DNA from: Escherichia coli
GTDB lineage: Bacteria > Pseudomonadota > Gammaproteobacteria > Enterobacterales > Enterobacteriaceae
Assembly (NCBI RefSeq): GCF_036507355.1
Contig: NZ_AP027877.1
DNA length: 64,000 nt
Reading direction: 5' to 3' (one strand)
Shown: positions 52,122 to 63,314 of the stretch, in pieces
Layout of the letters: every line of letters begins with the position of its first letter
How positions within the stretch are numbered: position 1 is the first letter of the stretch
Translations under genes and position numbers: made by a program
Notes under the pieces: generated by a model
Told to the model about the DNA's origin: nothing
Databases searched by the model: none
The model's input: only the letters and a program-made list of their open reading frames with translations

Positions 52122-52289
52122 TGGAGGAATTATGAAACACTATCGGGAATCGTCTGAATGGCGGGCACATTTGCGAGCACGCATCCAGTAATAACACAGG
52201 AAACTATTTTATCTACGCGTTAGCGATAGACTGCTTGCATGGCGAAAGGAGGTAAGCCGACGATTTCAGCGGGACGCTGAAACGGGAAA

Positions 52290-52435
52290 GCCCCTCCCGA
52301 GGAAGGGGCCATAAATAAGGAAAGGGTCATGATGAAGATACTCATCATCGTGGCGCTCTTAGTGATTAGCTACCCAGCATACTAAGACTACCAGGGCGGG
52401 GGAAACCCCGCTCTACCCTCACTCCTGAAAGTATG
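52290..52435 (-). ncRNA. sib: Sib antisense sRNA (antitoxin) overlapping ibs; ends approximate
   Basis: In Ibs/Sib loci the Sib RNA is encoded fully antisense to ibs; hairpin CCCCTCCCGAGGAAGGGG lies upstream of ibs (candidate Sib terminator on the minus strand). Confidence 0.35.
52329..52385 (+). CDS. ibs: Ibs-family type I toxin (18 aa)
   Basis: ATGATGAAGATACTCATCATCGTGGCGCTCTTAGTGATTAGCTACCCAGCATACTAA encodes MMKILIIVALLVISYPAY; good RBS (AAGGAAAGGG) upstream. Confidence 0.75.
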   Translation: MMKILIIVALLVISYPAY

Positions 52436-52721
52436 CCTTCACGTTCAGAATGTCAATCCGCAGGCTTTGCAGTCTGCGATCCTGCCAGCAAATATTCTTT
52501 GCGAGACGTTACGCAATAATCACAGAGGAAACTATTTTGTTCACGCGTTAGCGATAGACTGAATTCAGGGCGAAAGGAGGTAAGCCGACGATTTCAGCGG
52601 GACGCTGAAACGGGAAAGCCCCTCCCGAGGAAGGGGCCTTAAATAAGGTAAGTTGCACATTTAAAATCTCTTTAATTATCAATAAACTACAATGTATAGG
52701 TCATTATTAGTCAAAATAAAA

Positions 52722-53612
52722 TCATTTGTTGATTTCAATTTTGTCCCATTCTCTCCCTCGGCTATCCCTATACCGCGCCGCCATTGAATCTGATTTATGT
52801 CCGAGAAGACGTTGAGCAAACTTATCGCCAATCTGATTCCGGTATAGCCTCGCCGACAGGCTACGCAGTTCATGGAATGTTGGTGGGTCTCCATCAAATG
52901 AGAGTCCAGATGCATTTCTCGCCTTTGTAAAATACTTCGATACTGTTTTCGGGGAAAGCGGTTCGTGATGCGTTGAGGCGATTATAGTTTCACTGCCGCT
53001 GGCCTCCCTGCATTTCTGTAGTGTATCAGCCAATGAGATATTGAGCGCGTCAATCGTTAGCATCAGCGGAATGGCGAGCTTAGCCCCTGTTTTACCCTGT
53101 TCAATGTGAAGATGGTTGTCGTTTATGTCTGACCATTTCATTCTGCACAAATCGCCGACTCTCTGCCCTGTAACGACAGCCGAATCCATCGCCAGTCTTA
53201 GCCAGATTGGGAGAGGTTCGGCTGCATGGTAAATCGCGACATACTCATTAGCTGTCAGCCTTGAGCGCCTTACTTCTGACTTTGCTGTGCGGGTTGCTGT
53301 TACCGGATTCGTTTCCACATGCCCCTCGGCTATTGCCTCACGAAAAACGTCAACAAGGGTTGACCTGATTAATTTTGCGGAAGCCGCTTTACCTTCTGCT
53401 ACGTAGGTGTTTAGCATTGCTGCCACCTCTTTCGTTGATATGTCAGCGAGCGGTTTGTCCGGCAATTTTCTTCGGATTGCCCTGATTTTGCTGGCGTAGT
53501 CGAGTAGAGTTTTCGTCCTGATCCCCCTCTCGCTGAGGATTGTTTCATATCGGTCAAGCCACGCATGAAGAGTGATTACGTCAGCGCCTTTAATCCTGTC
53601 TATCAGTGAGGT
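52722..53612 (-). pseudogene. int: Lambda-family tyrosine integrase, C-terminal fragment (truncated by IS600-like insertion)
   Basis: C-terminus ...HELRSLSARLYRNQIGDKFAQRLLGHKSDSMAARYRDSRGREWDKIEINK resembles the lambda Int C-terminus (catalytic R, H-x-x-R, Y). Frame remains open upstream of the first Met up to the IS600 end at 53613. Confidence 0.8.
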
Positions 53613-54122
53613 AGCCTGAGTTTAACGGACACTCCTTCCTGAAATAGAATGGCATCAGAAGGAGCTAATAATGAGCAGAAAAACCCAACGTTACTCTAAA
53701 GAGTTCAAAGCCGAAGCTGTCAGAACGGTTCTTGAAAATCAACTTTCGATCAGTGAAGGCGCTTCCCGATTATCTCTTCCTGAAGGCACTTTAGGACAAT
53801 GGGTTACCGCCGCCAGAAAAGGGCTCGGTACTCCTGGTTCCCGCACGGTGGCTGAACTGGAATCTGAAATTCTGCAACTGCGTAAGGCGTTAAATGAAGC
53901 TCGCCTTGAGCGAGATATATTAAAAAAAGCAACGTATTTTGCACAGGAGTCGCTGAAAAATACGCGTTAATCGAACAATGGCGACAACAATTTCCCATTG
54001 AAGCGATGTGTCAGGTATTTGGTGTATCCAGGAGCGGTTATTACAACTGGGTACAGCATGAACCCTCAGACAGAAAACAAAGTGATGAGCGGCTAAAACT
54101 GGAGATTAAGGTGGCACATACG
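53613..54122 (+). mobile_element. IS600-like element, 5' fragment only
   Basis: Left end TGAGGTAGCCTGAGTTTAACGGACAC at 53613; complete OrfA (53671..53970, identical to the other copy); OrfB matches only for about 38 residues (MCQVFGVSRSGYYNWVQHEPSDRKQSDERLKLEIKVAH) then diverges. Confidence 0.75.
53671..53970 (+). CDS. IS3-family transposase OrfA
   Basis: Identical to the 99-aa OrfA at 6533..6832. Confidence 0.85.
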   Translation: MSRKTQRYSKEFKAEAVRTVLENQLSISEGASRLSLPEGTLGQWVTAARKGLGTPGSRTVAELESEILQLRKALNEARLERDILKKATYFAQESLKNTR

Positions 54123-54149
54123 GTAACAAGCCGATACATGCCACACGCA

Positions 54150-54747
54150 TTACTCACCCTCTTTGATGCGAATGCCAGCGGCGCGTGGCACATTAACTTC
54201 CACGATGCGCACTGTTGGTTTGTACATCTCAATCGCTGTCAGCCAGTCAGCTCCTGTCATGCGCTTTTCCGCATCGCCATTAGTCCACTGAACCGGTACA
54301 CCAATAGCCTTCATCGCGATTTCTATTTCCCCGGCAATGGCGCTTTTTCCGCAACCAGTAAAACCAGAAACAACGACAAGAACTTCACCTTTGGCTGGTT
54401 TTATTTCCCGTGCTTCCAGTTCTGCAATGCGCTTACTTCCATCCGCGATTACTCCCTCGTAATATTCACGCTGCTCGTTGAGTTTTGATTTTGCTGCTTC
54501 AAGCTCAACTCTCAGCTTCCCTACCGTTAGCGCAATATCCTCGTTCTCCTGGTCACGGGATTTGATGTATTGCTGGTTTCTTTCCCGTTCATCCAGAAGC
54601 GCCAGCACGGTTGCCGGATTAGCCTTGGCAACAAAATCACGGACTGGCTTACAATCAATCTCAGCAATGGGTTGATACGATGTGTATCCATGCTGTCTTG
54701 TATAACTACCGTGACGAATAACGAAAAAATCACCATTTATTTTTTTA
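54150..54747 (-). pseudogene. Phage early-region protein fragment (Ead/Ea22-like, tentative), N-terminus removed by IS1
   Basis: Reading frame enters from inside IS1 (the ORF-track start codon lies within the IS1 end); C-terminal part ...LVVVSGFTGCGKSAIAGEIEIAMKAIGVPVQW. The family assignment is by resemblance only. Confidence 0.4.
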
Positions 54748-54771
54748 GCCTGCCACGGTAATGACTCCAAC

Positions 54772-61983: not shown

Positions 61984-62342
61984 TTCGCATCCCTAAAGAC
62001 AATGAACTTTGAATAGATGAAACCGCACACCAGGCTGATGGCGGAGAAGGTGACAAGAGTTATCATCGGGGGAAGTGCGCATCTATCAGCAGCCCATCCA
62101 ACAGTAGCACTGAGTGTTCCCATGAACCCGACATATAACATGTAGCGCATCGTTGTAGTTGATGCTTTGAATGTGAATTTTGCATTCGCGAAGAAGCTAA
62201 AACTCACAGCCACAACGAAACCTGCGAAGTTTGCCAGAGCCTGATTGGTATGCGCGGCATAGATACATACACCAAAAACCACCCAGTGTATAAGTGTGTT
62301 CAGCACACCAATCGAGGTGTACCTTGCAAATATATTTAACAT
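61980..62342 (-). CDS. gtrA: GtrA flippase-like small membrane protein
   Basis: 120 aa: [59 protein letters not shown]..., matching GtrA of Shigella serotype-converting phages as I remember it. Confidence 0.9.
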
Positions 62343-62494
62343 TTATTTAATCAATGAGTTCTGAAAGGTATGAAGTCTATCATCCAAGTCTCAATCGATC
62401 GATACTTGCGGTAGTTGATGAGGAAAACTCTGGTACACAAAGCTTTGCACTGGACTGCAAGGTGTTGTGCTTCTCTGGAGTGCGACATGTTTGA

Positions 62495-62536
62495 TAACAA
62501 AAAATTAGCGCAAGAAGACAAAAAATCACCTTGCGC
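62495..62536 (-). terminator. Candidate intrinsic terminator between the prophage right end and gtrA
   Basis: Hairpin GCGCAAG-(15 nt)-CTTGCGC, followed on the minus strand by TAATTTTTTG. Confidence 0.35.
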
Positions 62537-62685
62537 TAATGCTCTGTTACAGGTCACTAATACCATCTAAGTGGTTGATTCATAGTGACTGGATATGTTG
62601 TGTTTTGTCGCATTTTGCAGTCTATTATTTAACCGCGAATTCGTGTAATGCGATGATTTTTAAGTGATTAATATTATTTTGTCAT

Positions 62686-62812
62686 CCTTAAATAAGGAAA
62701 GGGTCATGATGAAGTGGATCATCATCGTGGTGCTCTTAGTCATAAGCTTCCCGGCTTACTAAGACTACCAGGGCGGGGGAAACCCCGCTCTACCCTCACT
62801 CCTGAAAGTATG
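62686..62812 (-). ncRNA. sib: Sib antisense sRNA of the split unit (3' end and terminator displaced by the prophage); ends approximate
   Basis: Antisense to ibs 62706..62762; the hairpin normally upstream of ibs is now found only at the left junction (about 52615..52636). Confidence 0.3.
62706..62762 (+). CDS. ibs: Ibs-family type I toxin (18 aa)
   Basis: Encodes MMKWIIIVVLLVISFPAY; its native upstream sequence is replaced by prophage-end DNA. Confidence 0.7.
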   Translation: MMKWIIIVVLLVISFPAY

Positions 62813-62994
62813 CCTTCACGATAAGATTGTCAATCTGCAGGCTTTGCAGTCTGCGATCCTGCCAGCAAATATTCTTTGCGAGTCGTTACGCAATAATCAC
62901 AGAGGGAACTATTTTGTTCACGCGTTAGCGATAGACTGCATTCAGGGCGAAAGGAGGTAAGCCGACGATTTCAGCGGGACGCTGAAACGGGGAA

Positions 62995-63145
62995 CCCTCT
63001 CCCGGAGAAGAGGGCTTTTAATAAGGAAAGGGTTATGATGAAGCACGTCATCATACTGGTGATACTCTTAGTGATTAGCTTCCAGGCTTACTAAGAACAC
63101 CAGGGGGAGGGGGAAACCTCTCCCTAACCCTCACTCCTGAAATTA
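62995..63145 (-). ncRNA. sibA: Sib antisense sRNA (SibA-like); ends approximate
   Basis: Antisense to ibsA; upstream hairpin CCCTCTCCCGGAGAAGAGGG is a candidate terminator on the minus strand. Confidence 0.35.
63035..63094 (+). CDS. ibsA: Ibs-family type I toxin, IbsA-like (19 aa)
   Basis: Encodes MMKHVIILVILLVISFQAY. Confidence 0.75.
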   Translation: MMKHVIILVILLVISFQAY

Positions 63146-63314
63146 TGTCACTCCGCCCTTAGTGTCAATCGACGGCTCTCCGTTCTTGCGAGGCGAATAG
63201 CAAAATTTTCTGCGCCGCCGGGACTAATTCTGAAAGTTTCTTCGTTTGCTCTTATTTCATTATTGCAGTCGGTATGATACCGGACCTTAATAATTCTCTA
63301 AGAAAGGATTTCTT

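Follow-up and report, generated by a model that had tools for sequence, protein, structure and literature searches.

A lambdoid prophage remnant with HK022-type attachment arms splits a sib/ibs toxin-antitoxin unit of Escherichia coli

Organization of the locus

The DNA analysed here (the window) is a 64,000-nucleotide stretch of the Escherichia coli contig NZ_AP027877.1, and positions refer to it unless another sequence is named. It carries an array of sib/ibs type I toxin-antitoxin repeats, one unit of which is interrupted by the remnant of a lambdoid prophage. The locus consists, in order, of mdtA on the minus strand, sib/ibs unit 1, the left half of unit 2, the inserted phage DNA, the right half of unit 2, unit 3, and a yegL-type vWA gene. 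Each repeat unit is approximately 328-335 bp in length. As argued below, the phage DNA very probably entered through integration by a lambda/HK022-type integrase (Int) at the sequence AATAAGG in one sib/ibs unit, carried out by a phage whose attachment site (attP) has an altered overlap.

Three complete Sib RNAs match the Rfam model RF00113, all on the minus strand (52314-52456, 62691-62833, and 63020-63168), with scores of 136-150 bits compared to a gathering score of 56. Each is accompanied by an ibs open reading frame (ORF) of 18-19 codons on the opposite strand, and this combination places the repeats in the Sib/Ibs type I family. The ibs ORFs are homologous to ibsA and ibsB of strain K-12, and PF13956 is recorded on an identical locus. 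That Ibs is toxic and is repressed by the Sib RNA of the same pair is known for K-12 (Han et al. 2010, PMC2943612), and equivalent functions would be predicted for the alleles described here.

Unit 1 (52170-52497; 136.5 bits) is intact and resembles K-12 sibB. Its Sib RNA, placed by homology to the K-12 SibB annotation, runs from 52420 to 52285 on the minus strand, and its ibs ORF occupies 52329-52385 on the plus strand. Unit 3 (62875 to approximately 63205; 149.5 bits) is also intact and resembles K-12 sibA/ibsA, with the Sib RNA running from 63132 to 62989 (minus strand) and the ibsA ORF at 63035-63094 (plus strand). Unit 2 lies in two pieces. The left half (52498-52648 including the core, with the sib part ending at 52641) occupies the same alignment columns as units 1 and 3. 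It contains the upstream or promoter region of ibs on the plus strand and, on the minus strand, the orphan 3ˊ end of Sib, including the terminator hairpin (52641 to 52613); no complete Sib RNA was called there by the Rfam search. The right half (62686-62874 including the core, or from 62698 onward after the overlap; 140.1 bits) contains the ibs ORF (62706-62762, plus strand) without its native upstream region and the body of the Sib RNA (5ˊ end at 62797, minus strand) without its own terminator. The equivalent K-12 locus (compared over K-12 positions 2152300-2154300) has two units in the order yegL, sibA/ibsA, sibB/ibsB, mdtA. Strains differ in the copy number of the array between mdtA and yegL, having either two or three units.

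Precise insertion at a short direct repeat

A preliminary description of this DNA had reported a 12-bp match at both prophage-chromosome junctions, with a variant at the equivalent place of an uninterrupted unit, and both observations hold. The repeat CCTTAAATAAGG is present exactly, on the plus strand, at 52637-52648 (attL) and 62686-62697 (attR), and the one-mismatch variant CCATAAATAAGG is located at 52309-52320 in unit 1. When up to one mismatch is allowed, the window contains four matches compared to 0.25 expected. As the preliminary description stated, the left junction reads from sib through the core into phage DNA and the right junction from phage DNA through the core to the start of ibs. 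Specifically, the left copy is preceded by the sib/ibs repeat (the sib terminator) and followed by an AT-rich arm (P′) and then the 3ˊ end of int, whereas the right copy is preceded by an AT-rich phage arm (P) and followed by the Shine-Dalgarno sequence and start codon of ibs. The flanks of the two copies are thus mutually unrelated on both sides, which indicates that the repeat is short and isolated rather than the edge of a longer tract of homology, the circumstance that the preliminary description named as fatal to its proposal.

The insert comprises 52649-62685 (10,037 bp) and splits the middle of the three sib/ibs units. When 52498-52648 is joined directly to 62698-62874, the result aligns to units 1 and 3 with no gaps, and therefore both junctions are equivalent points of one unit. 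The arrangement also has the geometry proposed previously, with the 3ˊ end of int facing attL, the gtrABC cassette at attR, a duplicated core, and precise insertion in one unit. It could be argued that the recurrence of the 12-mer is due to chance or simply reflects the sib repeat, because the motif is part of the repeated unit and variants of it are found in units 1 and 3. This explanation has a negligible probability: the attR copy is preceded by phage DNA and not by sib DNA, the observed count of four was reached in none of 100 shuffled sequences, and the junction is reproduced in many genomes.

Attachment-site architecture

Both ends of the insert are made of HK022-type attP DNA. The phage side of attL (52649-52721, plus strand), homologous to HK022 attP from 52649 onward, includes the C′ half-site TAAGTTG (52649-52655), an H′-like IHF motif (52677-52689), and the P′1 arm-type site AGGTCATTAT (52698-52707). 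The P arm at attR (62546-62690, plus strand) includes P1 (62551-62560), an H1 IHF motif (62568-62580), P2 (62582-62591, minus strand), H2-like motifs (62646-62673), and the C half-site ATCCTTA (62684-62690). Joining the P arm of the right end to the P′ arm of the left end yields a reconstructed attP that is 90.4% identical to HK022 attP over 352 nt. The arm-type (P1, P2, and P′1) and IHF-like (H1 and H′) motifs are located at HK022-homologous positions and are divided between attL and attR. On the chromosomal side, the B half-site GGCCTTA (52635-52641) forms the end of the sib portion in the left half of unit 2, and the B′ half-site AAAGGGT (62698-62704, plus strand) lies in the Shine-Dalgarno region of ibs. 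The overlap AATAAGG occupies 52642-52648 at attL and 62691-62697 at attR. Apart from an excisionase gene, the structural features of a lambda/HK022-type heterobivalent tyrosine-integrase att system are present, and recombination by such a system would be predicted from them.

These termini also bear on the idea that the insert is a composite transposon, or was otherwise inserted by insertion sequence (IS) elements, with the 12-bp repeat as a target-site duplication. There are four IS copies in the insert, and direct repeats flank many transposons. However, the ends of the insert are attP P′ and P arms and not IS ends, all IS copies are internal, and intact relatives that lack these IS copies have the same junctions. 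We consider this origin to be exceedingly improbable.

Two such relatives are full lambdoid prophages with both xis and int, found in strains E2 (NZ_CP104509; ~42 kb) and CE0007a (NZ_CP119011; ~51 kb). Their attL cores read GGCCTTA-AATAAGG-TAAGTTG, as in the window, and their attR cores read ATCCTTT-AATAAGG-AAAGGGT, compared to ATCCTTA-AATAAGG-AAAGGGT in the window. In the window and in E2 alike, both ends carry AATAAGG, and the ends in CE0007a, which were read from separate loci, agree. In the intact prophages, the base preceding the overlap differs between the two ends, which confines the exchange to the 7-bp AATAAGG, as in lambda and HK022. The obligatory crossover identity is this 7-bp sequence and not 12 bp. 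Thus, the 12-bp core of the preliminary description stands as a direct repeat but not as the crossover core, given the CCTTT of the attR sites in intact relatives. The additional shared CCTT is a coincidence of the B and C half-sites, and the uninterrupted 12-bp identity is peculiar to the lineage of the window; it is also present at two other loci compared.

The HK022 system has the attP core ATCCTTT-AGGTGAA-TAAGTTG. An HK022-type Stx1a prophage between torS and torT has the attR core ATCCTTT-AGGTGAA-AAAGGTT and the attL core GCACTTA-AGGTGAA-TAAGTTG. The HK022 chromosomal site is therefore GCACTTA-AGGTGAA-AAAGGTT, compared to GGCCTTA-AATAAGG-AAAGGGT here. Between the two systems, the B′ half-sites are identical at six of seven positions and the C′ half-sites at all seven, whereas the overlaps agree at only one of seven. 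Read towards the overlap, all eight half-sites of both systems end in C-T-T-(T/A). From the prophage ends, the attP of this phage type would be TCATCCTTTAATAAGGTAAGTTG, with AATAAGG as its overlap.

Integrase and specificity

The int gene lies beside attL and is oriented with the 3ˊ end towards the junction (52722-53609, minus strand; PHROG integrase, E = 1e-64). It is 95% identical to HK022 int in nucleotide sequence, as is, approximately, the whole span 52649-53609 when the P′ arm is included; homology ends at 53609. The int product is ~98% identical to HK022 Int in amino acid sequence. An alignment of nine Int sequences (three from HK022-core phages or prophages and six from sib-site prophages) shows 98-99% identity and no column by which the two classes could be told apart. 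A substitution, D356N, was considered as a specificity residue, as it correlated with the site in five sequences, and was rejected when the correlation broke down in nine. Because Int is the same across the site classes, the difference in target is carried by the DNA of attP and not by the protein. In lambda-family recombination, the overlaps of the two partners must match, but many overlap sequences are tolerated. The attachment specificity of HK022 is not the one observed here, where the overlap is AATAAGG and the target is a sib/ibs unit beside mdtA, not AGGTGAA and torS-torT. In other words, the enzyme is the same as that of HK022, and the class of att specificity is different.

Alternatively, a genuine HK022-type phage with the overlap AGGTGAA might have integrated into a weakly similar secondary site. 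Lambda-family phages use such sites at low frequency, the integrases are 98-99% identical to HK022 Int, and B′ resembles that of HK022 at six of seven positions. However, AATAAGG is found at both junctions and AGGTGAA nowhere, and the same is true of independent intact prophages with different cargo. Moreover, the HK022 overlap matches the site at one position in seven, and recurrence in at least 84 genomes is unlike a rare accident. Secondary-site use is therefore judged to be very improbable.

Occupied and empty sites in E. coli genomes

Among 5,426 complete E. coli genomes, the attL junction was found in at least 84 when a 261-bp query was used with a minimum of 80% coverage. This result supersedes a count of 380 genomes, which was inflated by a query for which a match to int alone already gives 80% coverage. 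In all seven attL junctions that were read, the B half-site is GGCCTTA and the site adjoins mdtA. The occupied unit is the one proximal to mdtA in two-unit arrays and the middle one in three-unit arrays. Of the same 5,426 genomes, 4,415 (~81%) contain an exact match to the 61-nt empty site. All three empty sites inspected are located between mdtA and yegL, and that of O157:H7 corresponds to an empty version of the three-unit array in the window. When one genome per species was searched across the GTDB collection, the attL 19-mer gave four matches in unrelated taxa, which is the level expected by chance.

Another occupied locus, in ECNB21-M121 (NZ_CP083585.1), contains an independent remnant, in which gtrC is different and a fragment of a P22-type head-binding tailspike is present. 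A scan for AATAAGG downstream of its gtrA (47381-47460) did not find an attR-type core (TGTCAT-CCTT-AATAAGG). In this strain, the unit preceding ibsA has the B half-site GGCCTTA rather than the GGCTTTT of K-12, and an IS481-family element replaces attL beside mdtA. In Z1323CEC0007 (NZ_CP148463.1, 3042500-3092400), attL lies beside ibs and mdtA, the prophage ends at pphA/yebV, and the matching attR is 1.3 Mb away, a separation that implies that a large part of the chromosome was inverted between two lambdoid prophages.

The cargo of sib-site prophages varies. Near attR or attL, those of E2 and Z1323CEC0019 encode the type III effectors NleG and NleA. The prophage in CE0007a encodes a SMODS nucleotidyltransferase and SLATT pair, which looks like an anti-phage signalling module.

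Position of the target in the Sib RNA

A comparison of paralogues indicates why only one unit type is used. In K-12, ibsA (B half-site GGCTTTT) and ibsB (GGCCATA) both have the overlap AATAAGG and were not observed to be occupied. The equivalent sites of units 3 and 1 in the window, GGCTTTT-AATAAGG-AAAGGGT and GGCCATA-AATAAGG-AAAGGGT, are likewise unoccupied, the latter having a non-canonical B. At ibsD, the B half-site is GGCCTTA and the overlap position reads CAGAAGG; at ibsE, these are GGCCTTG and TATAAGG; and at ibsC, for which no B half-site is assigned, the overlap position is unrelated (gaaggag). Only the type represented by unit 2 (GGCCTTA and AATAAGG), which is occupied, combines the exact overlap with a canonical B. 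K-12 lacks the site because its sibB is one base off (CCATA rather than CCTTA).

Numbered as in K-12 SibB, the overlap has its complement at +101 to +107 and B′ at +94 to +100, and the last 29 nt comprise the rest of J1/7 and the terminator. The proposal that the attachment site is located inside a Sib RNA gene and the ibs leader is borne out by these positions, on the K-12 annotation, and by the location of the site at the ibs Shine-Dalgarno sequence. In SibC, the TRD2 region (+99 to +115) targets the translation-initiation region of ibs and is followed by the P7 terminator, and TRD2 is one of two hypervariable regions that discriminate Sib paralogues (Han et al. 2010, PMC2943612). Because the target falls in this paralogue-discriminating region, only one unit type matches the phage. 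The fold of the unit 1 Sib RNA consists of the P1 stem, a single-stranded AUUUAUG (J1/7), and the terminator hairpin.

In the split Sib RNA gene, the body and duplicated core are followed by the phage P arm, and no strong hairpin followed by a U-run is met before the phage lambda-type tI/sib retroregulator-terminator (62505-62545, minus strand), ~190 nt downstream. This hairpin was recognized by folding and by its homology to the HK022 record feature 'sib transcription processing site'. The phage hairpin named sib lies 140 bp from the Sib small RNA (sRNA) gene; the two names are unrelated and easily confused in annotation. The ibs ORF at attR keeps its ribosome-binding site, and the region beyond ~20 nt upstream is phage DNA, which would remove the ibs promoter. 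The left half-unit would keep that promoter, pointing antisense into int, and the Sib terminator lies just downstream of the int stop codon.

Proposed series of events and its assessment

Taken together, the data suggest the following. A lambdoid phage, probably P22-like and carrying gtrABC, would have integrated into a sib/ibs unit between mdtA and yegL. Its HK022-type Int, with arms and C and C′ half-sites that stayed HK022-like, would have paired the AATAAGG of attP with the chromosomal GGCCTTA-AATAAGG-AAAGGGT, as is expected from the need of lambda-family integrases for overlap identity. The target would correspond to SibB +94 to +107, where the P1 stem passes into the single-stranded TRD2, just 5ˊ of the Sib terminator, with the ibs Shine-Dalgarno sequence on the opposite strand. 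Parted from its terminator, the Sib body would presumably be transcribed ~190 nt further to the phage tI/sib hairpin; parted from its promoter, this copy of the ibs toxin gene is probably silent; and an orphan Sib terminator would remain immediately downstream of int. The prophage would later have decayed to 10 kb, through deletions and the insertion of four IS copies, with loss of xis and the arm-binding domain of Int.

Several points weigh against this account. The 84 occupied genomes may share ancestry and do not represent 84 events, and only three empty and seven occupied attL sites were inspected by eye. The attR of the window reads CCTTA and not the CCTTT of other lysogens and HK022, a difference that might go back to a variant attP or might have arisen later. 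Searches of INPHARED and IMG/VR yielded no free phage or circular attP that has the AATAAGG overlap. IMG/VR was searched for exact matches to a 25-mer with CCTTA and a 23-mer allowing CCTT[AT], and in INPHARED the only BLAST matches of the attP core were phages that have the HK022 core (HK022, mEp235, mEp506, Gally, and H19J). A simple promoter and terminator scan called neither the Sib terminator nor the ibs promoter, and these features were placed instead by RNA folding and published mapping. The extension of Sib, silencing of ibs, and termination of int are predictions from sequence and folding.

A separate question is whether the remnant arrived in this genome already integrated, through homologous recombination or transduction of the mdtA-yegL region, with the repeat simply inherited. 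The flanking sib units and mdtA and yegL offer ample homology for such an import, three other assemblies share the gtr cassette and att arrangement, and among the E. coli prophages at this site there is one that was rearranged when it recombined with another prophage. However, import concerns the history of the locus and not the mechanism, as the original event would still have been Int-mediated at this core. No mosaic break was seen in the flanks within the window, though no systematic search was made. We regard import as unlikely.

Int-mediated integration at AATAAGG remains the favoured explanation. The preliminary description had likewise proposed integrase-mediated, site-specific integration of a lambdoid prophage, and this is upheld by the attP halves at the ends of the insert, the gap-free rejoined unit, and the empty sites. 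Of the searches that it suggested, the one for other prophages joined to the core beside ibs now gives at least 84 genomes with the attL junction, including some with intact prophages, and the one for phage genomes with this core in attP beside a lambda-type int gave no match in INPHARED or IMG/VR.

Contents of the prophage remnant

The int ORF lacks the 62 N-terminal codons that encode the arm-binding domain, which are replaced by an IS3-family (IS911-like) fragment (53610-54149, plus strand; NCBIfam transpos_IS3). This fragment has an orfA at 53671-53970 and a degraded orfB, and its right boundary is approximate. No xis is present in the window, where the IS occupies the place of xis and the 5ˊ end of int. 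Its absence reflects decay and not a different system, given that the intact relatives found at this site do have xis. Next are an ORF fragment of a lambdoid early region (54150-54747, minus strand; phrog_250, Ea22-like region, PHROG E = 8e-63), cut by IS1, and two IS1 copies with insA and insB ORFs (54748-55524 and 55525-56301, minus strand). These copies form a perfect head-to-tail tandem of 777 bp, in which IS1 (768 bp) plus 9 bp is repeated with zero mismatches, which points to a duplication of very recent date or to a dimer of IS1.

Over 56302-57450 on the minus strand there are phage ORFs of unknown function, which correspond to phrog_1376 (56297-57166) and phrog_2201 (57247-57450). The phrog_1376 ORF (289 amino acids) contains a long low-complexity repeat rich in E, A, K, and R, which gives rise to spurious overlapping ORFs and short direct repeats. 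An IS3-family (IS600-like) element follows at 57613-58851 on the plus strand, with orfA at 57675-57959 and orfB at 58016-58828 (NCBIfam transpos_IS3, 337.8 bits); its boundaries are approximate and represent the best terminal inverted repeats. A load of IS1, IS600-like, and IS911-like elements of this kind is suggestive of Shigella or of an E. coli lineage rich in IS copies. The remnant of a tail fibre or tailspike C-terminus (59047-59534, plus strand; phrog_20787, virion structural protein) precedes the gtr genes. With int truncated, xis lost, and four IS copies in the remnant, excision is predicted to be impossible, and loss of xis and of the Int arm-binding domain would leave the gtr cassette fixed in place.

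The gtr cassette

The genes gtrC (59580-61067; PHROG E = 2e-73), gtrB (61054-61983; E = 5e-178), and gtrA (61980-62342; E = 2e-69) lie on the minus strand at the end of the prophage. As judged by PHROG, they form a gtrABC cassette of GtrA flippase, GtrB bactoprenol glucosyltransferase, and GtrC, and Pfam domains GtrA_DPMS_TM, Glycos_transf_2, and Glucos_trans_II are recorded on proteins identical to those in the window. The cassette is predicted to be of the O-antigen glucosylation type. In a search of 50,697 phage records, GtrC (495 amino acids) is 25-26% identical to phage GtrC proteins. The best of the 25 tblastn matches listed has 26.5% identity, with all of them below 60%, and no Sf phage is among those 25. 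GtrC is thus likely to be an uncharacterised type of serotype-specific glucosyltransferase. An identical GtrC is found in the same context in GCA_047852605.1, GCA_905398585.1, and GCA_905398635.1.

At the DNA level, gtrCBA is present at 99.2% identity in ~34 E. coli genomes (e.g. NZ_CP071073.1), with the matched span covering 59451-62631. This homology breaks at 62631, inside the P arm and 55 bp before the core, and the break marks a joint, made by recombination, of the cargo with the int/att module. In strain 3347558, gtrCBA forms the end of a prophage adjoining ybhB-bioA, the lambda att position, which indicates that the cassette has been exchanged among lambda-family int/att modules. The presence of a gtr cassette at the classical lambda att site also makes non-tRNA sites normal for gtr phages of E. 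coli. The preliminary description had called the site unusual. It does differ from the tRNA sites of Shigella Sf phages, but it is recurrent (occupied in at least 84 genomes, with an empty site in 81%), and a non-tRNA location is ordinary.

Meaning and novelty

The mechanism is entirely canonical. What appears to be new is the definition of the site at base level, the use of HK022 Int with an altered overlap, and the coincidence with the boundary between Sib TRD2 and the terminator. No literature description of this site was found in full-text searches, which did not extend to the supplementary list of loci in Bobay et al. (2013, PMC3603311). According to that study, integration occurs in E. 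coli at eleven loci lying no more than 1 kb from an sRNA gene, and the locus may already be catalogued there at a coarser level.

The site constitutes a recurrent E. coli/Shigella-type attachment site defined to the base, and a natural example of a lambda-family integrase retargeted purely by the overlap sequence. K-12 lacks it by a single nucleotide, which is probably the reason that it escaped classical phage genetics. CRIM-type integration tools already rely on the HK022-type enzyme and arms. In addition, the site identifies a type I toxin-antitoxin sRNA as an entry point for prophages with gtr serotype conversion, type III effectors (NleG and NleA), or defence genes, and for annotation it accounts for orphan sib/ibs half-units and variable copy number between mdtA and yegL.

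A more far-reaching possibility, which we find rather doubtful, is that one integrase (HK022 Int) naturally serves two orthogonal specificities defined by the overlap, with lysogeny rewiring a type I toxin-antitoxin unit. On this possibility, the toxin ORF would be cut from its promoter, and the antitoxin RNA would swap its terminator for the RNase III-sensitive phage sib/tI. The int transcript would gain the orphan Sib terminator, and the orphan ibs promoter would fire antisense into int. If these swaps do affect Sib stability, Ibs expression, or the control of int and excision, then the choice of att site would be functional and not incidental. The pair formed by attP (AATAAGG) and the sibB-type attB would also offer a ready second landing site for HK022 Int, found in ~81% of E. 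coli and missing from K-12 by one base.

Comparison with known systems

Phages are reported to integrate in the 3ˊ parts of small RNA genes, such as those for tRNAs, the tmRNA ssrA, and the sRNAs ryeB and ryeE (Williams 2002; Bobay et al. 2013, PMC3603311). The present site is similar in that the target is in the 3ˊ portion of a structured, conserved noncoding RNA gene, beside a hairpin. It differs in that the RNA 3ˊ end is not rebuilt, with identity ending after 7-12 bp, and in that the Sib terminator is removed and replaced only by a distant phage terminator. A further difference is that the target is one type I antitoxin paralogue and the ribosome-binding region of its toxin.

The organization of the remnant, with int at one end and tailspike-gtrCBA at the other beside att, resembles that of P22-like and Shigella Sf phages. 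Those phages have P22-type or Sf-type integrases and use thrW or argW. By comparison, the remnant has a lambda/HK022-type module, and its GtrC is ~25% identical to phage GtrC among the matches listed. Its site is sib/ibs and not thrW or argW, which sets it apart from the Shigella flexneri Sf type.

The closest relative is HK022, with which this system shares an Int of 98-99% identity, arms of ~90% identity, and the same arm-type and IHF layout. Also in common are an identical C′ half-site, a C half-site that is identical in the intact relatives, the sib/tI retroregulator hairpin, and the 7-bp overlap geometry. The differences are the overlap and attB, which are AGGTGAA and a site between torS and torT for HK022, and AATAAGG and a sib/ibs unit beside mdtA here. 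HK022 is also an isolated phage, whereas none with an AATAAGG attP was found in INPHARED or IMG/VR.

Lambda and HK022 Int have been reprogrammed experimentally by changing the overlap in both partners, as with saf mutants and with HK022 Int at human pseudo-att sites. The likeness to the present case is that specificity is shifted through overlap DNA while the enzyme is unchanged. The difference is that here the change is apparently natural and is established as a recurrent chromosomal site.

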